Assembly (NCBI GenBank): GCA_039714415.1
Contig: JBDLJL010000002.1
Coordinates: 14,269 to 78,268, forward strand
Direction: 5' to 3'
Source: Bacteroidota bacterium
GTDB taxonomy: Bacteria; Bacteroidota; Bacteroidia; Bacteroidales; NBLH01
Length of the DNA: 64,000 bases
Part shown: positions 6,263 through 28,479 of the stretch, piece after piece
Position numbering within the stretch: position 1 is the stretch's first letter
How the letters are laid out: every line of letters starts with the position of its first letter
The notes under the pieces: generated by a model
What the model was told of the DNA's origin: nothing
The model's input: only the letters and a program-made list of their open reading frames with translations
Database searches by the model: none
Made by a program: the position numbers and the translations under genes

Positions 6263-6416
6263 TACTTTTTCACCTAATTCCTGATTGCTTGAAATTTTTA
6301 ATAGGTTCTGAAAAGTTAGATTCTGTACTTTTGGATACTTAACAAGATTTATTTTGTCCAGATTTATTTAATATTTAATATTGTATAAAGTAAATATATG
6401 AACGTGTTCCAAAAAA

Positions 6417-7424
6417 ATGAGTAAAATTTTTCTTAGAACAGTAATTCTTGGGGGTTTCTTATTTTTCGGTTTTAATATTGTATTCTCACAGGATACAATT
6501 AAAAATGAAAAACACACCTATGTAAGATGGGTAAGTCAATTCCCATCTGTCAAAAAAGAAAAACAGGAATTTTCTAAACGCATTTCGAAGGTTATTTTTG
6601 GAAAAGAACCTCTTTTTTTAAAAAAGCCGTTTAATGTGATCGCTAAAAACCCAAATGATTTCTGGATATTGGATCAGGGAAGAGGAGGTATTGTTCATAT
6701 AAAAAAAAGTTCTGCTGAAATCCCCAGGTTTATTTTAAAAGAATTAGAAGGCTTTACTTCGTTGGTTGGGGTTTCTTCAATTGATGATGGGAAAATTTTA
6801 ATTACAGATTCTCATTTAGATAATGTTTACCTGATAGATTTATTAAAAAAGAAAATAATACCATTAAATGAGGCTCTTATACTAAAACGCCCAACCGGTA
6901 TTGCTTATTCTAAGATTACTGACGAAATTTGGGTGGTAGAAACTGGTTCACATAGTATTTGTGTATTAAATCGAGAAGGAGAGATTCTAAAAAGAATAGG
7001 TCAAAGAGGTAAAGGTCCCGGCGAATTTAATTTCCCTACATTTATATGGATTGACAAGTTAGGTAATGCATATATAGTGGATTCTATGAATTTTAGGATT
7101 CAAATATTTAATAAACAAGGTGAGTTCGTAACTACATTTGGCCAAATTGGAGATGCTTCAGGCTATTTTTCACGACCCAAAGGAATTGCTACAGACTCTT
7201 TTGGAAATATTTATGTGGCCGATGCTTTATTTCATGTGGTTCAAATTTTTGATAAATCTGGTAGATTTTTATACCGATTTGGTCAACAAGGAAATGGCAA
7301 AAGTGAGTTTTGGATGCCTACGGGAATATTTATTGACGAAAAAAACTATATTTATGTGGCAGATAGTTATAATTCCAGGGTACAGGTTTTTCAATTAGTT
7401 ACAAGTGAAAAAGGGGAAAAGTAA
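6417..7424 (+). CDS. Secreted NHL-repeat (6-bladed beta-propeller type) protein
   Basis: It has a signal peptide. Repeated units of the form G.G.GEF.FP..I..D..GN.YV.DS.N.RIQ.F occur, for example GKGPGEFNFPTFIWIDKLGNAYIVDSMNFRIQIFN. Confidence 0.8.
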   Translation: MSKIFLRTVILGGFLFFGFNIVFSQDTIKNEKHTYVRWVSQFPSVKKEKQEFSKRISKVIFGKEPLFLKKPFNVIAKNPNDFWILDQGRGGIVHIKKSSAEIPRFILKELEGFTSLVGVSSIDDGKILITDSHLDNVYLIDLLKKKIIPLNEALILKRPTGIAYSKITDEIWVVETGSHSICVLNREGEILKRIGQRGKGPGEFNFPTFIWIDKLGNAYIVDSMNFRIQIFNKQGEFVTTFGQIGDASGYFSRPKGIATDSFGNIYVADALFHVVQIFDKSGRFLYRFGQQGNGKSEFWMPTGIFIDEKNYIYVADSYNSRVQVFQLVTSEKGEK

Positions 7425-7451
7425 TTAATAGAGGTTAGCTTAAGTTTCAGC

Positions 7452-7487
7452 GACCAACAAGTGGGTTATTTAACCCATTTATTGGTC
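7452..7487. promoter_or_regulatory. Composite palindrome GACCAA-caag-TGGGTTA-tt-TAACCCA-ttta-TTGGTC between the NHL gene and the 12-heme cytochrome gene
   Basis: Read directly. It is not followed by a T run, so it may be either a protein-binding site or a weak terminator. Confidence 0.4.
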
Positions 7488-7694
7488 AAATACCACAAAT
7501 AATTAATAACTGAATAGCTGCTTTTTTAAATACGGAATTAATGATTGGCGAAGATAAAACTTTTTTTACTATTCATAATCAAGTGATTGAAGTTCAAGAG
7601 TTTTTTTTTAATATATTTATTTCATGACAACTATTAAAATCTATTGATTAGGCATTATATATGTGTAATGCTGTTTAGTTTAAAGGTGTATATA

Positions 7695-9401
7695 ATGAAA
7701 AAATTAACAATTAATATATTCTTTATTTTAATATTGTCATCAGGGTTCATAAGTGCTCAATCAGTTATTAGCAGTCTTCATAATTTATCAGTAAGTGGTT
7801 CCGGGACAGTGAAAGCCACTGCAGAATCAGAAGTCTGTTTATTTTGTCATACACCACACAGTTCAAACCCATTAGGACCTTTATGGAACAGAAATGATCC
7901 TGGCTCTACTTATATTATATATGACAATACAATAAGTAGTACTTTTATCGCTATTCCCGGACAACCTGATGGAAGCGCTTTACTTTGCCTTTCATGCCAT
8001 GATGGAACAATTGCCATGGGTAATGTTCTTAGTAGAAGTACAGAAATTGCTATGGCTGGTGGATTTACAACAATTCAGGGACAAAAAAACCTTACAACTG
8101 ACTTATCAGATGACCATCCTGTATCATTTGTTTATAATTCTGCCTTAGCTGCTGCCGATGGTCAGTTAAAATTTCCGCCGGAACATCCCGTAATATTAGA
8201 TAATAATAGTAAGCTACAGTGTACATCTTGTCATGATCCACACAAAAATACATATAAACAGTTTCTGCGGGTATCCAACCAATTCTCAGCATTATGTTTT
8301 AATTGTCATGATAGAAATTATTGGTCAGCATCCAGCCATCAAAGTTCAGTTGCAACATGGAGTGGTGCAGGTATAAACCCGTGGGCACATATTGAAACCC
8401 CTTATCCTAATGTAGCTGAAAATGCATGTCAAAATTGTCATAGCCCACATACTGCTTCTGGCAAAGCTCGTTTGTTGAAATCTGGTTTTGAAGAAAACAA
8501 TTGTTTGGATTGCCATAATGGTAATGTGGCTGCTACCAATATAGAAACTGAATTTAATAAAGCATATCGTCATAATGTATTTGCTTACAACCAGCTTCAT
8601 GATCCACAGGAAAATGCTGATCCTGATGTGATGCATGTTGAATGTGTGGACTGTCATAACCCTCATGCTGTTAATAATTCCACGGCAAATGCGCCAAATG
8701 CAAATGGGTTTTTAGCAGGAGTACGTGGAATTAATCAAGCTGGAATTCCGGTTAATGTGATCCAGTATGAATATGAATTATGTTATCGTTGCCATGCAGA
8801 TAATGCAGTAGTTGCCAGTCCAACTAACAGACAAATTGATTTAAACGACAATAATGTACGTCTTGAATTTGATGTAGCTAACCCATCATATCACCCCATT
8901 GGTGGCGCTGGTCAGAATACTAATGTCCCAAGTTTAATATCTCCATTAAACGAATCCAGTATTATTTATTGCACAAGCTGTCATGCAAGTGATGGAACAA
9001 GCTCACCTGCAGGGCCACATGGTTCAATTTATCCCAGTATCTTGAAATATAGATATGAAACAACAGATTATACCATTGAATCATCTTCAAACTATGAACT
9101 TTGTTACTCCTGCCATAGTCGCGCTTCTATTTTGAATGATGAGTCGTTTATACATTCCGTGCACCTTTTAGATCCTAATAATAGAAATAATCAGACAACT
9201 TGTAATACTTGTCATGACCCGCATGGAATAGACAATAGTCAGGGTAATAGCACTAATAATTCTAATTTAATAAATTTTGACCTTACTATAGTTTTACCAA
9301 ATGGCACAGGAACATTGGAATTTGTTGATACCGGTACTTTTAGTGGTTATTGTGTTTTGCGTTGCCATAATAGGGGGCATAGTGCTGGAATGAGTTATTA
9401 A
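7695..9401 (+). CDS. Secreted multiheme c-type cytochrome with 11 CXXCH plus 1 C-terminal CX3CH (start taken at MKKLTINIFF)
   Basis: Motifs in order: CLFCH, CLSCH, CTSCH, CFNCH, CQNCH, CLDCH, CVDCH, CYRCH, CTSCH, CYSCH, CNTCH, then CVLRCH. The N-terminal CH..H...PLWNR / LCLSCHDGT paired-CXXCH style is present. Confidence 0.88.
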   Translation: MKKLTINIFFILILSSGFISAQSVISSLHNLSVSGSGTVKATAESEVCLFCHTPHSSNPLGPLWNRNDPGSTYIIYDNTISSTFIAIPGQPDGSALLCLSCHDGTIAMGNVLSRSTEIAMAGGFTTIQGQKNLTTDLSDDHPVSFVYNSALAAADGQLKFPPEHPVILDNNSKLQCTSCHDPHKNTYKQFLRVSNQFSALCFNCHDRNYWSASSHQSSVATWSGAGINPWAHIETPYPNVAENACQNCHSPHTASGKARLLKSGFEENNCLDCHNGNVAATNIETEFNKAYRHNVFAYNQLHDPQENADPDVMHVECVDCHNPHAVNNSTANAPNANGFLAGVRGINQAGIPVNVIQYEYELCYRCHADNAVVASPTNRQIDLNDNNVRLEFDVANPSYHPIGGAGQNTNVPSLISPLNESSIIYCTSCHASDGTSSPAGPHGSIYPSILKYRYETTDYTIESSSNYELCYSCHSRASILNDESFIHSVHLLDPNNRNNQTTCNTCHDPHGIDNSQGNSTNNSNLINFDLTIVLPNGTGTLEFVDTGTFSGYCVLRCHNRGHSAGMSY

Positions 9402-9443
9402 TTATGAAAAAAGCTGTATGAAATAAGTCTCGATTTTTTCGGG

Positions 9444-9512
9444 TCGGTTCTTCCGCAGAAGCGGAGGCTATATGGCAAATAGAATAATGAAAAAATAAAC
9501 AGATGAAACAAG
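9444..9512. repeat. About 70-bp intergenic element, copy 1 (GGTTCTTCCGC ... GGCTATATGG ... AAAAAATAAACAGATGAAA)
   Basis: Matches 26441-26513 by eye at roughly 75 percent. A shortened third copy lies at 9566-9616. Confidence 0.7.
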
Positions 9513-9607
9513 CATGTAAAAAATAATTATTTATTTACACACACGAAAATGATTATTTTTTTCATGCGGTTCCATCCGACAAATTGAAATAATTAAAAAA
9601 TTAACGG

Positions 9608-11080
9608 ATGAAAAAATTCTTTTCTTTTAGATTCAAAATGACCATTGTACTGCTGGTTGTCATTGTATCAATTTCATTTGTTTCCTTTTTTCTTTATAAT
9701 CGTTATCTCACTAAAAAAATATATAGTAATGCCGAAGAAAATATAGTTAGTATCCTGCATTTAGTTAAGGATCAGTACTATCTGTCAAAGCATGATACAT
9801 CAAGCACATTTAATATACTAAAAAAAATTGAAGAGCATAATTGGGTTCTAAAAACATGTTTAGCAAATTCTAAAGGAAATATTTTGTATACCTCTAAAGC
9901 AAAATATCCCTTGTGTGAAATACCAGACACAAAAAAGTTATTATCCCTGACAAAAGAAGTTACTTTGGAATCACATATATATAATAATGAACCATATACC
10001 CGGATATATATGAAAATGGAAAATTCACCGAGCTGTTATGAATGTCATAGTTCGGAGATAAAAACAATTGGATATTTGGTATATGATATTTCTATGACTG
10101 GGGCAGAAAAGAATAAAGTGTTTTTATTAAAATTTACTCTTTTTAATACCATTTTTTTGGTTTTAATCATTGGACTGGTTATTAGCTTGATGCATTATAA
10201 ATTTGTTCGAAAATCATTAATGCATTTTCAAATTAAGATAGAAAAGATAAATAGAGGTAATTTGGATGAACGCATTGTTATTCCGCATACAAAAGAACTG
10301 GGACAACTTGGAGAGCATTTTAACAAGATGTTAGATAAGTTTCAAAAAACCCGAAAAGAACTTTTATTTTGTCATAAAAAAGAATTACGAAACAATAAAA
10401 AGCTTGCAACAGTTGGTGAAATGGCTGCCAGGTTAGCACATGAAATTAGAAATCCAATAACCGGAATAGCTAATGCGATAGAAATTATTGCTGATGAGAT
10501 ACCTGATAAGCAGAACAGGCCTATTTTGGAAGAAATTCAACGACAAGCAAATAGGGTTAATGATGCGATTTCGAAACTTCTTATATATTCCCGTGCTTCG
10601 GAATTGGATACAAAGGATTGTAATATTAATGAGTTGGTTAAATCTTTGGCGTTCTTTTTAAAAAATCAGAATCACAATAAAAGAATTAAATTTTTAGCAG
10701 ATTTGGAGGATGATATTCCGAACTTTTATATTGATCAGGGAAAAATTGAAAATGCACTTTTAAACCTGGGTTTAAATGCTGTACAAGCAATAAAAAAACA
10801 GGGCATAGTTACCTTTAAAACAAATTATGATGCTGCTAAAAATATCATAATGGTTAATGTTCAAGATACCGGATCAGGAATTTCGAATGAAATATTACCA
10901 AAAATTTTCAGCCCCTTTTTTACGACACGAACTGAGGGAACAGGTTTAGGCCTGGCAATTGTTAAGGATATTGTTGAAAAGCATCAAGGTAAGATTTGGG
11001 TTGAAAAAAACATAAAAAAAGGCAGTGTATTTACAATTTTATTGCCCATTATTGAGAAAGAAGAACTAATAAATATCTGA
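9608..11080 (+). CDS. Sensor histidine kinase with a periplasmic CXXCH (putative c-heme) sensor domain, HAMP, HisKA and HATPase_c
   Basis: Two TM segments flank a domain of about 150 aa containing SPSCYECHSSEIKTIGYLVYDIS. The H-box is AHEIRNPITGI and the G-box is GTGLGLAIVKDIVEKHQG. Confidence 0.85.
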   Translation: MKKFFSFRFKMTIVLLVVIVSISFVSFFLYNRYLTKKIYSNAEENIVSILHLVKDQYYLSKHDTSSTFNILKKIEEHNWVLKTCLANSKGNILYTSKAKYPLCEIPDTKKLLSLTKEVTLESHIYNNEPYTRIYMKMENSPSCYECHSSEIKTIGYLVYDISMTGAEKNKVFLLKFTLFNTIFLVLIIGLVISLMHYKFVRKSLMHFQIKIEKINRGNLDERIVIPHTKELGQLGEHFNKMLDKFQKTRKELLFCHKKELRNNKKLATVGEMAARLAHEIRNPITGIANAIEIIADEIPDKQNRPILEEIQRQANRVNDAISKLLIYSRASELDTKDCNINELVKSLAFFLKNQNHNKRIKFLADLEDDIPNFYIDQGKIENALLNLGLNAVQAIKKQGIVTFKTNYDAAKNIIMVNVQDTGSGISNEILPKIFSPFFTTRTEGTGLGLAIVKDIVEKHQGKIWVEKNIKKGSVFTILLPIIEKEELINI

Positions 11081-11118: not shown

Positions 11119-12492
11119 ATGAAGTTATTGAAAATATTGGTAATTGATGACGAAAAATTAATTCGCTGGTCTTTTGAAAAACAACTAAGCTCAAAAGGAT
11201 ATAAGGTATATACAGCTGAAACGGGTGAGGAAGGAATGAAATTATTTGAATTACATTATCCGGATTTGGTATTTGTAGACAGCCGTTTGCCGGGAATGCA
11301 GGGGTTAGAAGTAATATCCAGAATTAAATCTATAGATGATGATGTTATCCTAATTTGTATGACTGCATTTGGATCAATTGAAATGGCTGTTGAGGCAATG
11401 AAATTAGGGGCATTTGAATATTTAAAAAAACCGTTTTCTTTTGATGAAATTGATATAATAATTAACAACGTAAATAAGAAGATTAATATAGATAAGGAAA
11501 TTCAGTTGCTTAGAAGACAACAAACTGATAAGTTGACCTTTGACGATATTGTTTGTGAGTCAGAAAGCATCAAAAATATTATTGACCTTTTGAAAAAAAT
11601 ATCAAAAACAGATGCTACGACTATTTTACTTTTAGGTGAAAGTGGAACAGGGAAAGATATATTTGCCAGGGCTATTCATAATGAGAGTAATCGAAAAGAT
11701 AAATCTTTTGTTGATATTAATTGTTCATCATTACCGGAAACTTTATTGGAAAGTGAACTGTTTGGTTATGAGAAAGGTGCGTTTACTGATGCAAAAAAAC
11801 TTAAAAAGGGACTTTTCGAAATTGCAGAAAACGGCACTGTTTTTTTAGATGAAATTGGTGAAGTAAATCTTGCTACACAAGTTAAACTATTAAGTGTGCT
11901 TGAAAACAGATATGTTCGTCGCTTAGGAGGGACTCAGAACATTCCTGTAAATGTACGTATCATTGCAGCAACAAATAAAAATTTAGAAGAGGCTATTGCT
12001 GAAAAGACTTTTAGGGTTGATTTGTATTATAGGTTAAAGGTGTTTCAAATTACTTTACCCCCTTTAAATAAACGCAAAGAAGATATTGTTGCCCTAACTA
12101 ATTATTTTTTGGATATTTTTAATGCTCAATTTCGTAAAAAGATTAAGAGTATCGCCCCTAAAACAAAACAAATATTAATGCATTATAACTGGCCGGGAAA
12201 TGTAAGAGAATTAAAAAACGTCATGGAACGTGCAATTATATTGGAATCAAATGATAAATTAACTGCTAAAAACCTACCTGTTGAAATAAGAAACATCCAA
12301 CCTACCATTGAAAAAGTTAAAAATATCTATCATTTTGAAATTCCGGATGAAGGTATTTCATTAACAGAGTTGGAGAAACAGGTTATTATCCAGGCTTTAA
12401 AAAAAGCAGAGAATAACCAAACTAAAGCTTCAAAATTACTTGGAATTTCAAGGGATACCCTAAGGTATAAACAAAAAAAATACAAGATATAA
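11119..12492 (+). CDS. Sigma54-dependent response regulator (NtrC family: REC, AAA+, Fis-type HTH)
   Basis: The REC domain carries DLVFVDSRLPGMQG. Walker A is GESGTGKD, the sigma54-contact loop is GAFTDA (a variant of GAFTGA), and the C-terminal HTH is KASKLLGISRDTLRYKQKKY. Confidence 0.9.
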   Translation: MKLLKILVIDDEKLIRWSFEKQLSSKGYKVYTAETGEEGMKLFELHYPDLVFVDSRLPGMQGLEVISRIKSIDDDVILICMTAFGSIEMAVEAMKLGAFEYLKKPFSFDEIDIIINNVNKKINIDKEIQLLRRQQTDKLTFDDIVCESESIKNIIDLLKKISKTDATTILLLGESGTGKDIFARAIHNESNRKDKSFVDINCSSLPETLLESELFGYEKGAFTDAKKLKKGLFEIAENGTVFLDEIGEVNLATQVKLLSVLENRYVRRLGGTQNIPVNVRIIAATNKNLEEAIAEKTFRVDLYYRLKVFQITLPPLNKRKEDIVALTNYFLDIFNAQFRKKIKSIAPKTKQILMHYNWPGNVRELKNVMERAIILESNDKLTAKNLPVEIRNIQPTIEKVKNIYHFEIPDEGISLTELEKQVIIQALKKAENNQTKASKLLGISRDTLRYKQKKYKI

Positions 12493-12752: not shown

Positions 12753-12768
12753 TGGTATATTGTTTGGA
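12753..12768 (+). promoter_or_regulatory. Weak -24/-12 (sigma54-like) box TGGTAT-ATTGT-TTGGA upstream of the tetraheme cytochrome gene
   Basis: GG and TTG have the canonical spacing, but the -12 element reads GG instead of GC. The box lies 45 nt before ATG 12813. Confidence 0.3.
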
Positions 12769-12812: not shown

Positions 12813-13439
12813 ATGAAAAAAATTCATTTAATTCTCTCTCTGTTTTTTTTATTTGCTTTTGCAAATTTCAGTTTTGGGCAAATTATTGGCTCAGGACATG
12901 ATTTTTCAGGTAATGCCTGGGCAAATAATAGGATTTGTATTGTTTGTCATACCCCTCATAATGGTACAGCTATGGCAAATGCGCCTTTGTGGAACAGGGA
13001 ATTGTCTGCAACAGCAACTTATACCATGTATAGTTCACTAACTTTTGATGGTGCTGCCTCGGCTGTTGACCCTATTGCTACTTCATCTTCAAACTCAAGG
13101 TTATGCCTCAGTTGCCACGATGGTACTGTAGCACTAGAAAACTTTGGAGGGGTAACAACCGGAACAACATTTATTACCGGTAGTGCAAACATAGGGACCG
13201 ACTTGAGTAATGATCATCCTATTTCATTTACCTATGATGATGCATTGTCAACTACAGATCCCGGATTGTGGCAACCAAGTACAACAGCTGCCTTAGGGGG
13301 GACAATTCAATCTGAAATGTTGTTTGGAGATCAGTTAGAATGTGCTTCTTGTCATAATGTGCATGATAATACCAATGGTTTCTTCTTAAGAATGGACAAT
13401 ACTGGTAGCGCCTTATGTTTAACTTGTCATAACAAATGA
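12813..13439 (+). CDS. Secreted tetraheme c-type cytochrome, paralogous to the N-terminal module of the 12-heme protein
   Basis: Motifs are CIVCH, CLSCH, CASCH and CLTCH. It shares GSGHDF..CIVCHTPH...APLWNR and LCLSCHDGT..DLSNDHPISF with 7695-9401. Confidence 0.88.
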   Translation: MKKIHLILSLFFLFAFANFSFGQIIGSGHDFSGNAWANNRICIVCHTPHNGTAMANAPLWNRELSATATYTMYSSLTFDGAASAVDPIATSSSNSRLCLSCHDGTVALENFGGVTTGTTFITGSANIGTDLSNDHPISFTYDDALSTTDPGLWQPSTTAALGGTIQSEMLFGDQLECASCHNVHDNTNGFFLRMDNTGSALCLTCHNK

Positions 13440-13464
13440 TAATGCTGAGGATTTAATTTTCTGG

Positions 13465-13491
13465 AAAGGCGGTTTTGAATCGCCTTTTTTT
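13465..13491 (+). terminator. Intrinsic terminator or attenuator after the tetraheme gene
   Basis: The stem is AAAGGCG / CGCCTTT with a 9-nt loop, followed by a T run. Confidence 0.55.
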
Positions 13492-19610: not shown

Positions 19611-22600
19611 AATATTTAAATGGAATATATATGAAACGTGTTTATAATGTGTTGATTTCTATGCAGACAATGGCTGCATTGCTTATTTTGTATATAATTG
19701 CAATGGCGGTAGCCACCTTTATTGAAAATGATTATGGTGCCCCTGTTTCAAAACACTTTGTTTATAATGCCTGGTGGTTTGAACTTATCCAGTTTCTACT
19801 GGTTGTTAATATGGTTGGAAATGTTTTTAAATATAAGTTGTATAAAAAACAAAAGTTAAGTATCCTTTTATTTCACATTGCTTTTATTATTATTCTCATT
19901 GGTGCAGGTGTAACCCGTTATATAAGTTTTGAAGGGACAATGCATATTCGTGAAGGAGAATCAAGCAACAAGATTCTTTCAGGAACATTATTGCAAATGC
20001 ATCTGTCCTCCGGTGATTTGCAGGAAAATTATAATACAGAATTGTTTATAAGTCCCGCTGTAAATACAGAGTTTTATCATGAGTTTGAGATAAATGGGAA
20101 AAAAGTTGAAGTAGAATTGAAAAATATAATCCCGAACCCAAAAGAAACTGTGGTTGAAGTTATAGATGGAAAAGCAATAATTGATATGGTATTTGCTTCA
20201 AAACAGAATATGGACAACCATTTTCTAAAAGAAAAAGCAATATTAAGTCATGGTGGGTTAAGCTTTACATTAAATGATGAAAGCAATGGTCAATCAGTAA
20301 AATTTTATACAGAGAATAAAAAGCTTTACCTGTTATCATCTTATAATTTAAGCGTGTTGGCAATGACAGGTAGTGAACTTGATACTGTTCTAATAGCAGG
20401 CGAAAAACACGAAATTCAGCTAAAGCAGTTGTATTCAATACAAAATCAGAAATTTGTTGTTACTAATTTTTATGAAAAAGCAAGAATTTCTTATGTGCCT
20501 GGCGATATGAGAAATGGTATGCAATTTTTTGCTTTGGAATTTGATATAAAAAGCGGTGTTTCAACAAAAAAAGCTGAAATAATTAGTGCTTATGGTGCGG
20601 TAGGCTACCCTGCATCAATACAAATTAATGAAATAAATGTTGACCTTGCTTACGGTGCACAGGAAATGATTTTACCTTTTGAATTGAAATTAAGAGATTT
20701 TCAACTTGAAAGATATCCGGGTTCTGAAAGTCCGTCTTCTTATGCAAGTGAAGTAACTTTATTAGATGAAAAGAATAGTATTGATATGGATTATCGCATT
20801 TTTATGAATAATGTGCTTGATTATAAAGGCTATCGTTTTTTTCAATCATCTTATGACCGTGATGAGAAGGGAACCATTTTATCAGTAAGTAAAGATAAAA
20901 CAGGAACAATGATTACCTACCTGGGATACTTTCTTCTATCACTTGGTATGCTTTGGTCATTATTAAATAAAAACAGTTATTTTATTGAACTTCTAAAAAG
21001 AACCGGGGACATTAGGGATAAGAGAAAAGGGATTGCGACCGTTATTTTGATTTTATTATTATTTGGTACTCAAAATTCTTTTGCCCAGAACACCCGACAG
21101 CATATAGATGCTGCCCATGCTAAAGAATTTGGAAAACTATTTGTTCAGGATAATGGTGGCCGTATCAAACCTTTTAACACGCTGACTAATGAACTTTTAA
21201 GAAAAATTTCAAGAAAAGAAGAGCTGCTGGGGTTAAACTCAAATCAAGTTTATTTGGGTATGATATTTAACCCGGTGTTCTGGAAAGATGTTAAAATGAT
21301 AAAAATCAAAAACCAGGAGTTAAAAGATTTGTTGGGTGTAGTGGGCTCATATGTGTCATTTAATGATCTGGTTAACCTGGAAAAAAATGAATACAAGTTA
21401 AAATCATATGTTGAGATGGCTTTTAATAAGGAGCTATCCCAAAGGAGTAAGTTTGACAAAGATGTAATTACAGTAGATGAACGTTTAAATATTTCTTATC
21501 AGGTTCTTTCTGGTGCATACCTCAAAGTTTTTCCTATACCCGATGAAATAAATCACAAATGGTTAAACCCTTCTGGAAATAAACATATTAAAGATAGTGT
21601 TGACAGGCAGTTTGTGGCCGGTGTGTTTTCAGCATATTTTAATGCGGTTGTGGCATCTGAAAAATCTGGTGATTGGGCTAAGCCAAATGAAATTCTAAAA
21701 AGTATTAAAGATTTTCAGATGAAATATGGTTCAGAAATTATTCCATCAGAAACTAAACTTAAGTTAGAGGTTCATTACATTAATGCTGATATTTTTAATA
21801 GAATTTACATGTACTATGGAATCATTGGGTTCGTTTTTTTAATTGTTTTATTTGTGGGCATTTTAAAGCCAAAAATGAATATAAAAATATTCACAACCCT
21901 TGCCAGTATTTTGTTGGGGGTTCTCTTTTTGTTCCATACTTATGGTTTAGGTTTACGATGGTACATTTCTGATCATGCCCCCTGGAGCAATGGATATGAA
22001 TCTATGATTTATATTGCCTGGGCTACAATGCTTGCCGGCTTTTTGTTCATGAAACGTTCACCAATAACGCTGGCGGCTACCTCATTATTGGCATCTATCA
22101 CCTTGATGGTGGCCCATTTAAGTTGGATGAACCCTGAAATAACCAACTTAGTACCTGTATTAAAGTCGTACTGGTTAACTATTCATGTATCCGTTATAAC
22201 AGCAAGTTATGGATTTTTGGCCTTGGCTGCATTGCTTGGGTTTTTAAGCCTAATTCTAATTATTTTACAAACTAATAAAAATAAGGAACAAATAAACCTG
22301 ACCATTGAGGAAATAACAAATGTTAACCATATGGCAATTATTGTGGGATTGTATTTGTTAACTATTGGTGCATTTTTAGGTGGGGTGTGGGCTAATGAAT
22401 CCTGGGGCAGGTATTGGGGCTGGGACCCTAAAGAAACATGGGCTTTAATAACAATAATTGTTTATTCTTTCGTAACCCATACTCGCTTAATACCATTTTT
22501 GAACAATAGGTATACTTATAACCTACTCTCTTTATTAAGTTTTTCTTCAGTTTTAATGACCTATTTTGGTGTTAACTATTACTTGTCCGGATTGCATTCT

Positions 22601-22732
22601 TATGCCTCTGGCGATCCTGTTCCTGTTCCAGCTTATGTTTATTATATCTTAGCTATAATTTTTATAATTTCAATAGTAGCATTTTTTAAAAATTCAAAGA
22701 CTAAAGAAGAAAAGGTTTCCATATCAGTATAA
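19604..22732 (+). CDS. ccsBA: Fused System II cytochrome c synthetase CcsBA (ResB-like N-terminus plus CcsA C-terminus); alternative start at 19631
   Basis: The ResB-type N-terminus is SMQTMAALLILYIIAMAVATFIEN. The C-terminal WWD motif is WGRYWGWDPKETWAL, with multiple TM segments. ATG 19604 overlaps the stop of the 27-heme gene (ATGGTAA). Confidence 0.85.
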   Translation: MVKYLNGIYMKRVYNVLISMQTMAALLILYIIAMAVATFIENDYGAPVSKHFVYNAWWFELIQFLLVVNMVGNVFKYKLYKKQKLSILLFHIAFIIILIGAGVTRYISFEGTMHIREGESSNKILSGTLLQMHLSSGDLQENYNTELFISPAVNTEFYHEFEINGKKVEVELKNIIPNPKETVVEVIDGKAIIDMVFASKQNMDNHFLKEKAILSHGGLSFTLNDESNGQSVKFYTENKKLYLLSSYNLSVLAMTGSELDTVLIAGEKHEIQLKQLYSIQNQKFVVTNFYEKARISYVPGDMRNGMQFFALEFDIKSGVSTKKAEIISAYGAVGYPASIQINEINVDLAYGAQEMILPFELKLRDFQLERYPGSESPSSYASEVTLLDEKNSIDMDYRIFMNNVLDYKGYRFFQSSYDRDEKGTILSVSKDKTGTMITYLGYFLLSLGMLWSLLNKNSYFIELLKRTGDIRDKRKGIATVILILLLFGTQNSFAQNTRQHIDAAHAKEFGKLFVQDNGGRIKPFNTLTNELLRKISRKEELLGLNSNQVYLGMIFNPVFWKDVKMIKIKNQELKDLLGVVGSYVSFNDLVNLEKNEYKLKSYVEMAFNKELSQRSKFDKDVITVDERLNISYQVLSGAYLKVFPIPDEINHKWLNPSGNKHIKDSVDRQFVAGVFSAYFNAVVASEKSGDWAKPNEILKSIKDFQMKYGSEIIPSETKLKLEVHYINADIFNRIYMYYGIIGFVFLIVLFVGILKPKMNIKIFTTLASILLGVLFLFHTYGLGLRWYISDHAPWSNGYESMIYIAWATMLAGFLFMKRSPITLAATSLLASITLMVAHLSWMNPEITNLVPVLKSYWLTIHVSVITASYGFLALAALLGFLSLILIILQTNKNKEQINLTIEEITNVNHMAIIVGLYLLTIGAFLGGVWANESWGRYWGWDPKETWALITIIVYSFVTHTRLIPFLNNRYTYNLLSLLSFSSVLMTYFGVNYYLSGLHSYASGDPVPVPAYVYYILAIIFIISIVAFFKNSKTKEEKVSISV

Positions 22733-22889: not shown

Positions 22890-23588
22890 CTATTTTGCTA
22901 CTGCTTCTTCAATTAATATTTCATATGAATATCCGTATCCAAAATCTCTGTCCAGAACAACTTTTCCTTCAATAGTTACAATATCCCCAACTTTAAATTC
23001 CTGGTTTGAAGTAACAACTAAATCAAATTTTCCGTTATAATCTGTTCCGTCCTGAAGGTGGATCCAGTTTTTTTTCATAATTGCGGCATTATATTTTGTA
23101 ACCTGCCCCCTTATTTTTACAGTTTTGCCTGCAATTTTTTCTTTAGATGAAAATAATTCAGAAATTGTTATCCCACCTTCGGCAGGATCTATTTTAACTT
23201 CATTTCTTACCACGGTTGATTTTACAGTAGAAGTATAAGTTGTTGCCTGGGCTACATTTTTGGTATCAGCAGGGCTGGTTGCCACTTTTTCCAGGAAAAA
23301 GACCGATTCAAAGTTTCTCCCCAATTCTTTACTATGAAAATCTTTCATTTCCATGCCACCTTCGTAATAGTAAGTTCCGCCTATTTCTGCCTGCATTTTT
23401 GGTACAGCCAGCCAGTTATCCATATCATTTTCTTTTACACGAAGGTAAGTATATGAACTTGTTTGAATCACTTCCTGAAGGACTACTTTATGAATTCTTG
23501 AATTATTTGTATTTGATTGTTCCTGATTTTGATCCTGGCAGCTTGAAATTAATAAGATTAAACCAATTTGAATTAAAAAAAGTCTCAT
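22890..23588 (-). CDS. Lipoprotein of unknown function, with a possible OB-fold-like C-terminal half
   Basis: The lipobox is ISSC. The C-terminal segment KTVKIRGQVTKYN...WIHLQDGT...DIVTIEGKVVLDRDFGYGYSYEILIEEA resembles periplasmic OB-fold proteins, but this is not a secure match. Confidence 0.35.
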   Translation of the reverse strand: MRLFLIQIGLILLISSCQDQNQEQSNTNNSRIHKVVLQEVIQTSSYTYLRVKENDMDNWLAVPKMQAEIGGTYYYEGGMEMKDFHSKELGRNFESVFFLEKVATSPADTKNVAQATTYTSTVKSTVVRNEVKIDPAEGGITISELFSSKEKIAGKTVKIRGQVTKYNAAIMKKNWIHLQDGTDYNGKFDLVVTSNQEFKVGDIVTIEGKVVLDRDFGYGYSYEILIEEAVAK

Positions 23589-23777: not shown

Positions 23778-23812
23778 GGGCTATATGACCCTATTGTTGG
23801 GTTATATGACAT
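23778..23812. promoter_or_regulatory. Direct repeat GGGCTATATGACCC / GGGTTATATGACAT with 21-bp period, a candidate activator site
   Basis: Read directly. The reverse complement GTCATATAGCCC also occurs at 12738-12749. Confidence 0.35.
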
Positions 23813-23922
23813 AATTCAATTAAGCTAAAAAATGGTTTTAAATCCACTTCGCAAATTTTTATTCATCCTGAATAGCTTAATACATAGGGCTTGTGGCTAC
23901 CTGTGATTTTAAATTAAATTAT

Positions 23923-23938
23923 GGGTATAGTATTTGGT
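23923..23938 (+). promoter_or_regulatory. Weak -24/-12-like box GGGTAT-AGTAT-TTGGT upstream of the FeS/NrfD operon
   Basis: It matches the box at 12753 at 12 of 16 positions. It lies about 140 nt before ATG 24080. Confidence 0.25.
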
Positions 23939-24079: not shown

Positions 24080-25075
24080 ATGCCTAAAGGTGAAAAAAAC
24101 AAAGAATCCTCCCGAAGAAAATTCTTGAGGTCAGGACTTGCAATAGGCGCAGGTACAGTAATTGGTGGAGGATTATTATCGTCTTGTTCAAAATCAAATG
24201 CACAAGATAATACGAACAATAAAAATGTTGAAAAGATTAAACTACTTACAACAGACGGTAAAATTGTTGAAGTAGAAAGAACAAAGCTTAGCCCAATAAC
24301 ACCAAGCGAACCGGCTGTTGGTGATGAAGCAAGAAAAGGGATACCGGGAAGAAAATTTGTAATGGTAATTGATCTTTCCAAATGTGCAAATGCCGGGAAA
24401 TGTACTACTAATTGTCAAAGTGGCCATAAACTAGAGCCCGGTCAGGAATATATGAGTGTATTTTTGATGAAAGACCATCAGTATAGTGATCCGTACTGGT
24501 TTCCTAAAAACTGCTACCATTGTGACAATCCATCTTGCGTAAAAGTTTGTCCTGTAGGTGCCACTTTTAAACGATCAGATGGATGTGTATTGGTAGATGC
24601 TGACAGATGTATTGGATGCAAATTTTGTGTTTCTGCTTGTCCATATTCAGCCAGGATATTTAATTGGAAAGCAGCAATTTCTGAACTTAATGCAGAAAAG
24701 GCTGAAGTAGAAAAAGAGAAAGAATTTTCACCGGAAACAGGTCTCCCTCATCAAATGGGAACGGTTACTAAATGTGATTTCTGTCCGGATAGGAGTAGGG
24801 AAGGGAAATTGCCATACTGTGTTACGGGTTGTCCAATGGGAGCCATATACTTTGGTGATGAAAATGAAGATGCTATATCAAATGGTACTGAAACTTTGCG
24901 TTTCAGAGAAACCATTGAGAATAAGGCAGGGTATCGGTATATGGAAGAACTGGGTACGAAACCAAGGGTTTACTATTTACCTCCGGTTGACAAAACTTAC
25001 CCATATGAAAAGGGCTTGAAAAATCTTACTGAGGAACAATTATTAAAATATAAAAACATACTCGATAAATCATAA
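24080..25075 (+). CDS. Tat-exported 4Fe-4S cluster protein (NrfC/PsrB/ActB-FeS-like)
   Basis: The twin-arginine signal is SRRKFLRSGLAIGAG. Ferredoxin-type cysteine groups include CYHCDNPSCVKVCP, CIGCKFCVSACP and CDFC...CVTGCP. Confidence 0.85.
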   Translation: MPKGEKNKESSRRKFLRSGLAIGAGTVIGGGLLSSCSKSNAQDNTNNKNVEKIKLLTTDGKIVEVERTKLSPITPSEPAVGDEARKGIPGRKFVMVIDLSKCANAGKCTTNCQSGHKLEPGQEYMSVFLMKDHQYSDPYWFPKNCYHCDNPSCVKVCPVGATFKRSDGCVLVDADRCIGCKFCVSACPYSARIFNWKAAISELNAEKAEVEKEKEFSPETGLPHQMGTVTKCDFCPDRSREGKLPYCVTGCPMGAIYFGDENEDAISNGTETLRFRETIENKAGYRYMEELGTKPRVYYLPPVDKTYPYEKGLKNLTEEQLLKYKNILDKS

Positions 25076-25080
25076 TAGCT

Positions 25081-26427
25081 ATGAAAATGAACACAGTAAA
25101 TAAACAATATAAGGAAGTTTTAGGTGATTTTCTTCCTAATTTAGGAAAACCAGACAGAAAATGGATTATCCAGGTAATTATTTTGTTACTAATAATAGGA
25201 GTAGGGCTGCTCGCTTTTGCCTACCAGCTTATTGAGGGGCAGATTGTAACCGGAATGCGCGATAATGTGGTTTTGGCTGTTTATATAGTAAATTTTATAT
25301 TTTTTATAGGTCTAAGTTATGCTGGGGCTTTAATTGCCGGTATTTTTCATTTAGGGGGTATAAACTGGGGTCGCCCCTTGCTCAGGATACTTGAAATTAT
25401 TACGCTTACATCTTTAATTGTTGGACCGGTTTTTATATTGGTATGTATAGGACGTCCGGAACGTTTTTTATATATGTTTATCTATGCACGGTTTCAGTCA
25501 CCTCTTATTTGGGATGTTATTGCTATTGTATCTGACTTGTTTTTTTGTATTGTATATTTAAATTTCACTTACATAAAAGATTTTGCAAAGCTTCGTGATT
25601 GCTCAGAATTGAAAGTTTCCAATTGGAGGAGGAAAATTTATACAATTTTTGCATGGGGTTATAATAATACAAAAAAGCAGGAAAAACTACTCAACCAGGC
25701 GCAAAATATAATGGCCGCTATCATTATACCAACTTCAATTATTGCTTATTCCTTATTAGCATGGCTTTTTGGTATGAATCAGCGTCCCGGGTGGCACAAC
25801 AGTATTTTTGCCCCTTATTTTGTACTAACCGCTGTTTATTCAGGGATTGCCCTTTTAATAATAATTATGTGGTACTACAGGAAATATTTTAAACTTGAAA
25901 AATATATTACCAAAGAACATTTTAATTATTTGGGATTTACCTTGCTTATTCTGGCTCTTTTCTACGGTTATTTTTCATTTAGCGAATATATTACGGAGTG
26001 GTATAATTCTCAAAAAACAACGAGTATCCTGTTGGATAAGTATTGGGATTTTTCAGAATATGGCTTTATGTTTTTGGTCTCAAATATTTTGGCAGCTATT
26101 CTACCCATAATTATTATAGGGTTTCCGAAATTTAGATCTGTTAATAGTATTACCATTAGCTCGGCTTTAATTTTATTTGCTCTATGGCTTAAAAGATATT
26201 TGATTGTGGTTCCATCGCTTGAAACGCCATATATCCCTATTCAGGATTACCGGGAGGAGTGGATACATTATTCTGCTACCTGGGTAGAGTGGGCTTTAAC
26301 CTTGGGGGGAATTTCTTTTTTCATCCTTGTATTTGTTTTAATGTCAAAACTTGCCCCGATTATTCCTGTATCTGAAATGGAAGAAAAGGCCAGGGGGATC
26401 AGGATTTTTTATAAAACAAGGGAATGA
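25081..26427 (+). CDS. NrfD/PsrC/ActC-family integral membrane quinol-interacting subunit
   Basis: 448 aa with about 10 predicted TM helices. It starts 5 nt after the FeS gene, and the N-terminal region is NrfD-like (AVYIVNFIFFIGLSYAGALIAG). Confidence 0.75.
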   Translation: MKMNTVNKQYKEVLGDFLPNLGKPDRKWIIQVIILLLIIGVGLLAFAYQLIEGQIVTGMRDNVVLAVYIVNFIFFIGLSYAGALIAGIFHLGGINWGRPLLRILEIITLTSLIVGPVFILVCIGRPERFLYMFIYARFQSPLIWDVIAIVSDLFFCIVYLNFTYIKDFAKLRDCSELKVSNWRRKIYTIFAWGYNNTKKQEKLLNQAQNIMAAIIIPTSIIAYSLLAWLFGMNQRPGWHNSIFAPYFVLTAVYSGIALLIIIMWYYRKYFKLEKYITKEHFNYLGFTLLILALFYGYFSFSEYITEWYNSQKTTSILLDKYWDFSEYGFMFLVSNILAAILPIIIIGFPKFRSVNSITISSALILFALWLKRYLIVVPSLETPYIPIQDYREEWIHYSATWVEWALTLGGISFFILVFVLMSKLAPIIPVSEMEEKARGIRIFYKTRE

Positions 26428-26440
26428 TTATTTTAAACTT

Positions 26441-26513
26441 GCGGTTCTTCCGCTATGACGGAACAGGCTATCTGGAAACTAAAAATAATTAAAAAATAAA
26501 CAGATGAAAATCA
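26441..26513. repeat. About 70-bp intergenic element, copy 2, running into the start codon of 26504
   Basis: GCGGTTCTTCCGC ... GGCTATCTGG ... AATAATTAAAAAATAAACAGATGAAAA matches 9444-9512 and 9566-9616. Confidence 0.7.
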
Positions 26514-27373
26514 AAAATATAATATTCAGTATTGCATTTATGCTGTTTTTAATAAACAATATGGCTATTGCCCAAGATAAAAAAAAGGACAATAAGCCCA
26601 AAAAGGTAAGGTTAAAATTAGAATACCTAAAATTAGAAGATGGTACAAAAGTATTGAGTTCAGTCTTGTATTGGAAAGATGGTAAGGACATCAACCCGGT
26701 TATTGATCAGGAAGTATCCTTTATTGCAGAAGATGATTCATCAGAATTGAAATTGGGAACTATATTGTCTAATAAAGAAGGTAAAGCAATTTTACATATT
26801 GAAAAAGACTTTAAATTTCCTGAAAATAAAAATGGCTTTACTGTTTTTACTGCGAAAATGAAAAAAAGCGATAATTATAAAAGGGCTAAAAAGTCAGTTG
26901 AAATAAAAGATGCAGATCTTGATTTTTCTCTGGATATTATTGATTCTGTCAAATTTGTGCAAGTCAAAGTTACAACTTTAGATAGTGTTGGTCAAACCAT
27001 TCCTATAAAAAGCTCTGAGGTATACGTATATGTAAAAAGGCTATATAGTTTATATCCTGTAAAGAAAGGTTATACGAATGAAAATGGGCAATTCAAAGTT
27101 GAATTCCCTACTGATATGCCTGGAGACTCTGTTGGAAATTTAAGAATAATTGTAAAAGTTCTTGATAGTGATGAGTATGGCACTATAGAAAAAGCAAAGG
27201 AAGCCCGGTGGGGAACTATTGTGTCTTTCAATGATGAAGATACTCCAAGGGCATTATGGGGTGTTGAAGCCCCTCTATGGATGATAATAGCCATATTTGT
27301 TGTGCTTGCAGGTGCGTGGTTTAATTTTGGCCTGGCAATTTATAAAGTGAACAAAATGAGAAAAGCCAATTAA
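26504..27373 (+). CDS. Signal-peptide protein with beta-rich (Ig/CarboxypepD_reg-like?) body and a C-terminal TM anchor; function unknown
   Basis: The signal peptide ends at AQD. The C-terminal helix is PLWMIIAIFVVLAGAWFNFGLAIY. It sits between the NrfD-like gene and the monoheme cytochrome gene. Confidence 0.45.
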   Translation: MKIKNIIFSIAFMLFLINNMAIAQDKKKDNKPKKVRLKLEYLKLEDGTKVLSSVLYWKDGKDINPVIDQEVSFIAEDDSSELKLGTILSNKEGKAILHIEKDFKFPENKNGFTVFTAKMKKSDNYKRAKKSVEIKDADLDFSLDIIDSVKFVQVKVTTLDSVGQTIPIKSSEVYVYVKRLYSLYPVKKGYTNENGQFKVEFPTDMPGDSVGNLRIIVKVLDSDEYGTIEKAKEARWGTIVSFNDEDTPRALWGVEAPLWMIIAIFVVLAGAWFNFGLAIYKVNKMRKAN

Positions 27374-27485
27374 TAACCGGTTTTAAGTTAAAGCTTAATG
27401 GCCAGTTCTGAGTTGGTTTATCAAGCTTAAGTAAAATTGAACTATATTTTATTATTTTATTTATTAATTATTAAAAAGAATTGTT

Positions 27486-27905
27486 ATGAAAGTGTTAAAA
27501 AAAATGAAGTTTTTATTTATGAGTATCTTGTTTGCTGGTGGAGGTTTTATACTAATTTCTATGACAAATGATATTCAGGATGACTGGCCCGTACCGGCAG
27601 AATATAAGAACATGAAAAACCCGATGGCTGGTAAGGCTGATGCAAGTAATGTTGGTAAAACCCTGTATAAAGAACATTGCGAATCATGCCATGGTAAAGA
27701 AGGTTATGGTGATGGTAAAAAATCCGGTGAACTAGATACGGAAATGAGGGATATTACATCTGCAGAAGTTCAAGGTCAAACAGATGGTGAATTATACTAC
27801 AAAAGCTTTATTGGTAGAGACGAAATGCCAAATTATGAAAAGAAAATACCTTCCAAAGATGACCGATGGAGAGTCGTTAACTATTTGAGAACGATGAAGG
27901 AATAA
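27486..27905 (+). CDS. Membrane-anchored monoheme class I cytochrome c
   Basis: It has a single CESCH, a downstream methionine region (GRDEMPNY) and an N-terminal TM helix. Confidence 0.8.
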   Translation: MKVLKKMKFLFMSILFAGGGFILISMTNDIQDDWPVPAEYKNMKNPMAGKADASNVGKTLYKEHCESCHGKEGYGDGKKSGELDTEMRDITSAEVQGQTDGELYYKSFIGRDEMPNYEKKIPSKDDRWRVVNYLRTMKE

Positions 27906-27930
27906 TTTTTTTCGAACTTATAGTAATTAG

Positions 27931-27960
27931 AAAAGGGGAATAAGTAGCCCCTTTTTCTAA
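27931..27960 (+). terminator. Intrinsic terminator after the monoheme cytochrome gene
   Basis: AAAAGGGG-aataagtag-CCCCTTTT followed by TCT. Confidence 0.6.
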
Positions 27961-28073
27961 TTATTAGGGATTTGTTTTATGCAGATATGGGATTAATCAC
28001 TTTCAAAGCGTTGAAAATAAGTTTAACTCTTTTAACCTGCATAATAAAGCAGGTTAAAAAACAAAATTGATTA

Positions 28074-28469
28074 ATGGCAAAAATAACAATGGCAATTCAG
28101 TTTGACAGATTAGATGATGTTATTCATAAGAATGACAGATCTCAATTTGATGTAACAAATCAAAATAACCATCAAACTGGAGTAAAAAGAATATCAAAAG
28201 AAGACGAATCTAAAATTTCTGAAATCAATAAAATAATAATTGAGATTGAAGAAAAATTTGAAGTTAAATGTGATAAATATTATTTGGGTAACAATATAAT
28301 AGAAAGTTTTTTTGATGTTTATTATGCTAGTTCTGGAGAATCTGGAAGCTCTGAGATAAAATTAAAAGAAATATATAGTTTCCTTTCTTTTTTAAGAAAT
28401 AAATACCTTAAAGTTAATATCCAGTGGTGTGTCTTAGATCCTAGTAATAATAGTGATGATTTTGTTTAA
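28074..28469 (+). CDS. Hypothetical protein, the last gene inside the island
   Basis: 131-aa ORF with no recognisable motif, preceded by an 11-bp-stem hairpin at 28030-28059. Confidence 0.35.
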   Translation: MAKITMAIQFDRLDDVIHKNDRSQFDVTNQNNHQTGVKRISKEDESKISEINKIIIEIEEKFEVKCDKYYLGNNIIESFFDVYYASSGESGSSEIKLKEIYSFLSFLRNKYLKVNIQWCVLDPSNNSDDFV

Positions 28470-28479
28470 GAAAATTGCG

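Follow-up and report, generated by a model that had tools for sequence, protein, structure and literature searches.

Solved structures of cytochrome nanowires are limited to Geobacter, Desulfuromonas and two archaea, and how such filaments are secreted, anchored, started and stopped is an open question (bioRxiv 10.1101/2025.10.22.684050). The same preprint describes a minimal omcE cluster as two multihaem cytochromes, two beta-propeller lipoproteins, the filament protein OmcE and a large barrel, located by resB/ccsB. OmcE filaments have been characterised in Fe(III)- and electrode-reducing bacteria, and omcE clusters are reported from Thermodesulfobacteriota, Pseudomonadota, Aquificota, Campylobacterota and Nitrospirota, with Bacteroidota unlisted (bioRxiv 10.1101/2025.10.22.684050). 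Two other systems are close in gene content. The uet cluster of 'Candidatus Tenderia electrophaga' (Gammaproteobacteria) has been linked to cathode electron uptake (bioRxiv 10.1101/2022.05.06.490989), and the DFE_0448-0451 and DFE_0461-0465 clusters of Desulfovibrio ferrophilus have been implicated in extracellular electron exchange and reported on cell-surface nanofilaments (PMC5815863, PMC9769857). Here we analyse a 64-kb stretch of a Bacteroidota genome (contig JBDLJL010000002.1 of GCA_039714415.1; 'the window'), in which the region 6263-28479 encodes multihaem cytochromes, beta-propellers and a large barrel. We read this region, with a probability of roughly 60%, as a Bacteroidota version of the omcE-type cytochrome-nanowire or extracellular electron transfer cluster, extended by accessories.

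CXXCH haem motifs were counted in the open reading frames (ORFs) of the window, and the proteins of the region were searched for domains (Pfam, NCBIfam). The composition of an omcE cluster is found in seven genes:

6417..7424, + strand, NHL1, six-bladed NHL beta-propeller with a Sec-type signal peptide (Pfam NHL 2.2e-24, DUF5128)
7695..9401, + strand, c12, 12-haem cytochrome (motif count, profile match to OmcE structures)
12813..13439, + strand, c4, OmcE-like tetrahaem cytochrome and candidate nanowire subunit (PDB sequence matches)
13511..14584, + strand, NHL2, NHL beta-propeller lipoprotein with lipobox LTSC (Pfam NHL, DUF5128)
14598..15440, + strand, c9, nine-haem lipoprotein and paralogue of c27 (motif count, lipobox)
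15445..17406, + strand, predicted beta-barrel of 653 amino acids (aa) (AlphaFold2 model, Foldseek)
17415..19610, + strand, c27, 27-haem MtrA-like wire (motif count, TIGR03508, 6r2q chain A)

By motif count c12 carries 11 CXXCH and one CX3CH, c4 four CXXCH, c9 nine CXXCH, c27 26 CXXCH and one CX3CH, and a monohaem cytochrome c further downstream one CXXCH. An earlier note on this DNA, made from the letters alone, had counted 51 CXXCH and 2 CX3CH motifs in the structural cytochromes, which is exact; one further CXXCH, in a sensor kinase, stands outside this total. The motif is missing from all 40 remaining ORFs of 110 aa or more in the window; the pattern is not a product of chance. All ORFs that the note had drawn are present where it had placed them, and the families it had named were recovered by Pfam and NCBIfam (NHL, Paired_CXXCH_1, ResB and Cytochrom_C_asm, Fer4_11, NrfD, HAMP/HisKA/HATPase, and Response_reg with Sigma54_activat and HTH_8). 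Its general description of a coherent multihaem respiratory module is supported.

The evidence that carries our reading begins with c4. In a PDB sequence search its residues 34-208 match 7tfs_A, which we take to be the Geobacter sulfurreducens OmcE filament, at 8.3e-30, and its residues 21-208 match 9yuq_N at 1.5e-27, in an alignment that runs end to end. The identities are 49% and 45%, respectively, and the two references are 44% identical to each other. This last value fits the assumed identity of 7TFS, since 41% is reported for the OmcE pair in the preprint, where 9YUQ is the Desulfuromonas soudanensis OmcE nanowire (bioRxiv 10.1101/2025.10.22.684050). The conserved features of OmcE homologues are given there as four CXXCH motifs and four extra histidines; these histidines serve bis-His ligation, and a neighbouring subunit receives one of them. 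In c4 the four CXXCH motifs as well as H29, H49, H135 and H184 are aligned with the references and kept in 42-43 of 43 orthologues. The signal peptide of c4 is of the ordinary, plain Sec type. The earlier note had seen a tetrahaem protein and missed the close homology to OmcE. Because of this homology a nanowire-type cluster, and no longer a plain Mtr/Pcc-type conduit, is the best reading.

Directly 3' of c4, between this gene and the next one of the same operon, lies a candidate regulatory element:

13463..13489, + strand, terminator-like hairpin (12 pairs, GC-rich) followed by a T-run

A similar hairpin follows c4 in 22 of 42 distinct related loci. It may be an attenuator setting the stoichiometry, with c4 made in excess over its partners.

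Conservation of the gene set was evaluated on 83 related loci, i.e. L001-L003 together with 80 metagenome loci (L004-L083), the ORFs of which were labelled by BLASTP against the window proteins. A core of seven genes (c4, NHL2, a small multihaem lipoprotein, the barrel, a multihaem wire, NHL1 and c12) is present in all 83 loci, its gene order is invariant, and the barrels are 38-69% identical. In the window and in the other loci having a two-component system, the NHL1-c12 pair is upstream, and the kinase and regulator are found between this pair and c4. In a subset of 16 loci the flanks extend for 8 kb or more to either side. Both NHL genes are present in 16/16 of these, a 232-aa lipoprotein in 9/16, an adjacent gene for the haem lyase CcsBA in 6/16, and adjacent kinase and regulator genes in 4/16. 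The full 22-kb arrangement is confined to the genome of the window and L001, a Bacteroidales metagenome-assembled genome (MAG) with 63% barrel identity. The 'complete 22-kb pathway' of the earlier note therefore stands for this genome and its close relative, and falls for the family, where only the seven core genes are invariably linked.

Apart from the barrel gene, the core is made up of three pairs of paralogues arranged about it: c4 with the N-terminal domain of c12 (36% identity, covering all of c4), NHL2 with NHL1 (30%), and c9 with the modules of c27 (30-34%). Compact loci show the mirror-like order c4-NHL2-c5 / barrel / c9-NHL1-c12 (e.g. L002 7617-15541). The mirror-like pairs suggest that an ancestral triplet was duplicated, with each face of the outer membrane perhaps served by its own set. 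The cluster is expanded in L080 and L081, where additional cytochromes of 20 and 21 haems are encoded, together with more NHL genes and another c4-c5 pair.

The barrel protein is 100% identical to MEN8118802.1. Its AlphaFold2 model, made from a 58-sequence alignment, has a pLDDT (predicted local distance difference test) of 90 and a pTM (predicted template modelling score) of 0.72. About 29-30 long antiparallel strands are connected by loops of 2-7 residues, and an inserted domain of ~60 residues (~386-453) holds the most conserved peptide of the family. In a Foldseek search against the PDB, MtrB (6r2q_B) is the best match with an E-value of 1.4e-8, a template modelling (TM) score of 0.46-0.47 and 9% identity, and TonB-dependent receptors, LptD and ushers rank behind it. 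The sequence has no match in Pfam or NCBIfam, and the family profile finds nothing at E-values up to 10 among PDB chains, MtrB included. The protein does not belong to the MtrB sequence family and is like MtrB in fold alone. No match to a plug domain was obtained, and 67 of 81 sequences end in an aromatic residue. The family comprises 2022 representatives at 50% clustering using an E-value of <=1e-3 and 551 using <=1e-30, and is entirely unannotated. With a high-confidence model and MtrB as the best fold match, the proposal that the 653-aa protein is a large outer-membrane barrel holds.

The neighbouring c27 has 27 aa per haem and contains three tandem 139-aa repeats of six haems each, which are ~75% identical (417 bp and ~76-77% identical in the DNA). 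It scores 288 bits against the DmsE family TIGR03508 (cut-off 192), a score inflated by the repeats, and its sole PDB sequence match is 6r2q chain A (1.7e-15), which we take to be MtrA. That chain (333 aa) carries the misleading name 'Cystathionine beta-synthase' in the PDB sequence file. Thus, a wire of the MtrA/DmsE family is found beside the barrel, and no surface lipoprotein of the MtrC/OmcA family was recognised in the window, the best TIGR03507 score being 50.6 bits against a cut-off of 209. Orthologues of c27 carry 9 haems (30 loci), 15 haems (9 loci), or 21, 26 or 27 haems. This 9, 15, 21, 27 series follows 9+6n and suggests that the wire is lengthened or shortened through the number of repeats. 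A separate class of wires, found in 10 loci, has 11 haems. At the position of c9, a five-haem cytochrome is encoded in 42 loci and a nine-haem one in 11.

Barrel and wire together raise the question of whether a filament has to be assumed. The region could encode a plain porin-cytochrome conduit of the Mtr/Pcc/PCC4 kind, in which a wire inside the barrel would expose its terminal haem, with c4, c12 and the NHL proteins acting as a non-polymerising relay or scaffold, located in the periplasm or bound to the surface. The structural match of the barrel to MtrB, the matches of c27 to MtrA and the DmsE family and its 27 aa per haem, a ratio that molecular wires should show, all agree with such a conduit, as do lipoproteins that appear to face the periplasm and the many OmcE-like tetrahaem proteins having no known polymerisation. 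Against this, the similarity of c4 to both proven filament OmcEs is as high as that between the two, none of its eight haem ligands is lost, the entire gene set mirrors the omcE nanowire cluster, and the hairpin after c4 suggests a subunit made in excess. On balance we consider a conduit lacking a filament unlikely, while treating it as a serious alternative to the nanowire-type cluster.

Homology to OmcE is found a second time within the core. The N-terminal part of c12 is an OmcE-like tetrahaem domain of ~205 aa, which is followed by 8 more haems. The c12 family profile matches the OmcE structures 7tfs_A (1.5e-43) and 9yuq_N (1.2e-32) at positions 7-206, and c12 scores 59.9 bits against the Pfam MtrC-MtrF_II-IV domain, above the cut-off. 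It is the most conserved protein of the cluster, having more than 7000 homologues of which the best 120 are 58-77% identical, and its alignment shows 16 invariant non-motif histidines for 12 haems. The signal peptide is an ordinary one and a lipobox is absent. Translation probably starts at ATG 7695 rather than at TTG 7644, because a conserved promoter-like element occupies 7650-7664. The preprint asks whether an OmcE-like filament tip or stopper exists, and finds none encoded in the OmcE operons it examined (bioRxiv 10.1101/2025.10.22.684050). In the Bacteroidota cluster a protein with an OmcE-like domain, c12, is always encoded.

The gene of NHL1 is always paired with that of c12. NHL1 itself has no lipobox, as is the case for all but 2 of 50 orthologues. 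In NHL2 and c9 the lipobox is conserved and followed by basic or neutral residues; an acidic export signal is present in 0/39 NHL2 orthologues and is lacking in c9. The lipoprotein export signal described for Bacteroidota is an acidic one after the cysteine. As the residues after the cysteine are basic or neutral instead of acidic, NHL2 and c9 are predicted to face the periplasm and are not obviously distal. The choice of 'distal' components in the earlier note (c27, c12 and the two NHL propellers) finds no support.

Four genes further downstream are candidates for the quinol side of the system:

24080..25075, + strand, 331-aa iron-sulfur (FeS) protein with four clusters, of the PsrB/NrfC/ActB-C-terminal type, with a signal (SRRKFL) for export by twin-arginine translocation (Tat) (Fer4_11)
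25081..26427, + strand, NrfD-family membrane subunit closest to ActC, presumed to hold the menaquinol site (NrfD domain)
26504..27373, + strand, 289-aa exported protein with a C-terminal transmembrane helix, function unknown, always found with the FeS, NrfD and cytochrome c genes
27486..27905, + strand, membrane-anchored monohaem cytochrome c, c552/ActE-like (Cytochrome_CBB3)

The FeS protein has a lipobox after the Tat signal and matches DsrO-like proteins at 6.6e-47, PsrB (2vpw_B) at 3e-29 and ActB (6f0k_B) at 3e-17, the latter in the C-terminal part of ActB alone. The NrfD subunit matches 6btm_C at 1.1e-41, with query positions 7-439 on positions 17-449 of the chain, and further full-length matches are 6f0k_C, 8k9e_C and 6lod_C. 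For the 289-aa protein no match was found in the PDB or among the families. The monohaem cytochrome c matches c552 at 1.8e-14 and, weakly, ActE (6btm_E, 2.1e-7). An ActC-type full-length match next to a PsrB/ActB-like FeS protein agrees with the quinol-side FeS/NrfD module that had been proposed. We link this module to the core because the block recurs beside the core and, in the window and in L001, shares its enhancer and -24/-12 elements. In a different arrangement it is also found beside the core in L053, L069, L072 and L079.

Compared with alternative complex III (ACIII; 6BTM, 6F0K), the likeness covers ActC, the C-terminal half of ActB and, weakly, ActE. The block lacks pentahaem ActA, ActF as a second membrane subunit, and the N-terminal half of ActB (full-length ActB has about 950-1040 aa), and a full ACIII was rejected on account of these missing subunits. 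The module differs further in having an unrelated 289-aa protein where ActD would be, and in its apparent co-regulation, which is with the cytochrome cluster and not with an oxidase. Going by these homologies, it is a minimal quinol:cytochrome c module that resembles ACIII without being a true ACIII.

The same machinery could also work inwards. Its electron donors would then be Fe(II), Fe(0), reduced minerals, cathodes or partner cells, and the electrons would end up in the quinone pool or on acceptors in the periplasm. Outside Desulfuromonadia, the described clusters closest in composition are tied to electron uptake (uet, and iron-corroding D. ferrophilus), and ACIII-type modules occur in Fe(II) oxidisers. 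The quinol module itself, however, argues in the other direction, as ActC-type complexes are best known as quinol oxidases. The known OmcE filaments come from Fe(III)- or electrode-reducing bacteria, and reduction of Fe(III) and Mn(IV), without a known route, has been described for related isolates of the Marinilabiliales (PMC5760507). The sequence does not fix the direction, and we regard inward flow as improbable.

FeS/NrfD modules like this one are also part of periplasmic reductases. A catalytic reductase subunit (molybdopterin, NrfA-type or sirohaem) is encoded nowhere in the window, and a known nitrite, sulfite or polysulfide reductase operon was rejected on this ground; the earlier note, which had taken the region not to be a known periplasmic reductase operon, is upheld here. 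A related possibility is a redox system restricted to the periplasm, for storage of electrons or for reduction or detoxification of a soluble compound, in which the barrel would be an import channel and the NHL proteins maybe enzymes. Propellers of the NHL/SGL type do include enzymes, and the NHL-family proteins also match the Pfam models SGL, arylesterase and Vgb lyase; in addition, none of the proteins has a recognisable signal for surface export. Such a system is difficult to reconcile with the lack of a catalytic subunit, with an MtrB-like barrel of ~30 strands having minimal loops and no plug-domain match, and with an OmcE homology and cluster architecture that point to the cell surface. 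We consider it highly improbable.

Control of the cluster was examined through its two regulatory genes and the sites upstream of c12, c4 and the FeS gene:

9608..11080, + strand, sensor histidine kinase with two transmembrane helices (HAMP, HisKA, HATPase_c)
11119..12492, + strand, NtrC-type sigma54-dependent response regulator (Response_reg, Sigma54_activat 7e-68, HTH_8)
7463..7476, + strand, palindrome GGG-N8-CCC, putative enhancer site upstream of c12, with a comparable site in L001
12502..12537, + strand, two tandem GGGGCATTTANCCC palindromes 22 bp apart, putative enhancer upstream of c4
23778..23813, + strand, palindrome GGGCTATATGACCC with a degenerate second copy, putative enhancer upstream of the FeS gene, with a tandem pair at the same place in L001
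7650..7664, + strand, sigma54-like -24/-12 element AGGCATTATATATGT (AGGCAT...ATGT), 31 bp upstream of ATG 7695
12753..12767, + strand, sigma54-like -24/-12 element TGGTATATTGTTTGG (TGGTAT...TTGG), 46 bp upstream of c4
23923..23937, + strand, sigma54-like -24/-12 element GGGTATAGTATTTGG (GGGTAT...TTGG), 143 bp upstream of the FeS gene

The periplasmic loop of the kinase has one CXXCH, at the same position in 13 of 13 orthologues that cover this part of the protein. With its domains and this conserved motif the kinase is well supported as a c-type haem sensor, and the haem-sensor kinase and sigma54 activator that had been named before are both recognised. The palindrome occurs five times in the window against 0.99 expected, and 0/100 shuffles reached five. 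All four matches to its degenerate form (4/4) lie inside the three control regions, those of c4, c12 and the FeS gene. One or two palindromes precede c4 in 11 related loci. Each of these encodes the regulator, and no locus lacking it has such a site there.

The -24/-12-like element was derived from a comparison of related loci. GGCAY-N5-YTG precedes c4 in 13 of the 15 loci that encode the regulator, compared with 0/28 without it. All three elements of the window are kept at the same place in L001: AGGCATTATATATGT, which is unique in the window, is there an identical 15-mer, and the counterpart of the FeS-gene element, at the corresponding position, is GGTATAGTATTTG. The canonical sigma54 consensus TGGCAC-N5-TTGCW, allowing <=2 mismatches, is not enriched in the window (21 matches, 26 expected) and pointed to no site of use. 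Through these putative sites the regulator, together with the haem-sensor kinase, appears to control three promoters. By the same predicted elements, the FeS/NrfD operon is in the same regulon in this lineage (the window and L001). Co-occurrence of both kinds of site with the regulator across loci supports the description of the system as self-regulated. Overall counts from sigma70 and terminator scans of the window were not above chance, and Rfam gave no match across its whole length.

Two further genes belong to the region:

19604..22732, + strand, CcsBA, fused ResB-CcsA system II cytochrome c synthase of 1042 aa (PF05140 and PF01578, TIGR03144)
22890..23588, - strand, 232-aa lipoprotein, function unknown (weak C-terminal match to the oligonucleotide/oligosaccharide-binding (OB) fold)

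The region thus has its own CcsBA, as claimed before, in the form of a single fused protein. The C-terminal match of the 232-aa lipoprotein, to PF01336 at 1.7e-4, is below the family cut-off. This lipoprotein is often encoded as two tandem copies beside CcsBA.

Put together, the parts suggest the following working scheme. At the inner membrane, the ACIII-like module (the Tat-exported FeS protein, the ActC-like NrfD subunit, the 289-aa anchor and the monohaem cytochrome c) would exchange electrons with menaquinol. The electrons would be carried across the periplasm by c9 and the 27-haem MtrA-like wire and pass through the barrel of ~30 strands, and c4 would form a haem filament at or beyond the barrel. 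By means of its OmcE-like first domain, c12 could act as an adaptor at one end of the filament. The two NHL propellers may be factors for assembly or scaffolding, and haem attachment would be supplied by the dedicated CcsBA. Signals from the haem kinase would reach three promoters through the sigma54 activator, i.e. those of c12-kinase-regulator, of c4 to CcsBA and of the FeS module.

The basis of our reading is computation: homologies, the barrel fold, conserved synteny and the promoter/enhancer pattern. From these we infer localisation, filament formation, contacts between the proteins and the direction of electron flow. Several points weigh against an omcE-type nanowire cluster. The host is an uncultured marine MAG. 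Many OmcE-like tetrahaem proteins may not polymerise (bioRxiv 10.1101/2025.10.22.684050), and no component carries a recognisable surface-export signal, so that all of them may be periplasmic. Comparison by sequence with omcE clusters covers c4 alone; the barrel, propellers and large cytochromes were compared by composition, and the window has three multihaem cytochromes besides c4 where the published minimal cluster has two. An AlphaFold2 model of c12, from a 52-sequence alignment, has a pLDDT of 40 and no usable fold. The sigma54-like elements of the window deviate from the consensus (TGGTAT...TTGG), and the FeS/NrfD block is adjacent to the core in only 3/16 long-flank loci.

A wider reading, which we put forward as speculation and think doubtful as a whole, is that Bacteroidota (cultured marine Flavobacteriaceae and sediment Bacteroidales among them) are a large unrecognised reservoir of OmcE-type nanowires, that c12 is a cluster-encoded end-piece co-polymerising with c4 through its first domain, and that the wire is tuned in length through 9, 15, 21 and 27 haems. 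The eight extra haems of c12 and its spare histidines would then connect the filament to the barrel-embedded wire or to mineral. If true, the start, end and anchoring of cytochrome nanowires would become directly testable. A close OmcE homologue with its companion genes is now found in Bacteroidota, a phylum dominant in marine sediments, bioreactors and anode biofilms, in which reduction of Fe and Mn had been seen earlier without a known mechanism; this suggests that Bacteroidota may wire themselves electrically to minerals or to other cells. The OmcE fusion in c12, the 9+6n-haem wire and the haem-sensor/sigma54 switch are handles which the Geobacter clusters do not offer.

Homologues of the system come from Bacteroidales, 'Bacteroidota', Draconibacterium and mislabelled 'Chlorobi' MAGs. 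One cultured carrier was found, Aestuariivivens sp. NBU2969 (Flavobacteriaceae, GCA_019931125.1), which has the whole core as well as CcsBA and makes the cluster experimentally tractable. In this genome (L084 14829-21658) genes for a DegT aminotransferase, a PglD-like acetyltransferase, a family 2 glycosyltransferase and WbqC lie between the core and CcsBA, and these sugar-modification genes recall the glycosylation genes which follow omcE clusters in Geobacter. Uncharacterised porin-cytochrome-like clusters have been noted in Bacteroidota before, in an anode-enriched MAG (PMC8258643) and in humic-lake MAGs (PMC6344600), and a Lentimicrobium MAG has such a cluster with 61- and 20-haem proteins (PMC13013709). 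A literature search for OmcE together with Bacteroidota returned nothing relevant, and in our searches none of these papers or of those on uet and D. ferrophilus ties the Bacteroidota clusters to OmcE.

Regarding the surroundings, the GC content is 30-37% over the whole window and the flanks consist of housekeeping genes, so the region is a gene cluster and not the 'island' of the earlier note. A horizontally acquired compositional island was rejected because of the flat GC content and because aspS adjoins the cluster in a distant relative too. The aspS gene (3718-5487, - strand) has this position in the window and in L083 (38% barrel identity), a hint that the cluster has kept its place in the chromosome and was not transferred recently. 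At the other end, the 131-aa ORF 28074-28469, listed earlier as a member of the module, has neither a signal peptide nor a family match and never recurs near the system in related loci. It is probably unrelated to it. The menaquinone genes mqnD and mqnB (futalosine hydrolase) of the futalosine pathway, at 28510-30256 on the - strand, are located directly beside the quinol module, which may be coincidental. A series of exported proteins and lipoproteins at ~56300-64000 (- strand), the last of which is a 1127-aa ORF running off the window, looks like a SusC/SusD-type polysaccharide utilisation locus, judged from N-terminal sequences alone.

The view that no characterised system has such a composition did not survive comparison with described clusters, since the omcE clusters of Desulfuromonadia have the same composition, and those of uet and D. 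ferrophilus are similar. In the D. ferrophilus clusters, compared by description, multihaem cytochromes likewise occur beside NHL propellers. For these clusters no porin gene is described, and Fe(III) oxide reduction was not abolished by deletion of single cytochromes (PMC5815863, PMC9769857). The Geobacter Pcc (OmaB-OmbB-OmcB), Ext and PCC3/PCC4 systems, also compared by description, share the logic of a porin with multihaem cytochromes (PMC5566968). In PCC3, too, the wires contain internal repeats, with very large numbers of haems and few residues per haem, and subgroup II of PCC4 has an Fe-S protein as well; PCC3 and PCC4 differ from the window in their five-helix dihaem-b-like inner-membrane protein and in lacking NHL propellers and an OmcE-like subunit (PMC5566968). 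With MtrCAB of Shewanella (6R2Q) the window shares a barrel that would sheathe a dense multihaem wire: c27 adjoins the barrel, and c12 matches the MtrC/MtrF Pfam model. The two barrels, however, have no sequence similarity, with ~30 strands in the window against 26 in MtrB. The window has NHL propellers and an OmcE-like subunit in addition, and its quinol side is of the ActC/FeS type, whereas that of MtrCAB is CymA.

The uet cluster of Tenderia, compared by description, is likewise a single conserved block, with genes for tetrahaem and 11-haem cytochromes, a beta-barrel of the outer membrane, two NHL proteins and a CcsA/CcsB of its own; it differs in also having a prolyl isomerase, a cupredoxin and three c7-type cytochromes of three haems each. 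Relative to the omcE cluster, one of the two propellers of the window (NHL2) is a lipoprotein where both are in the published cluster, and the window adds c12 with its OmcE-like domain, a wire built of six-haem modules, the putative haem-sensor/sigma54 regulon and the ACIII-like module.

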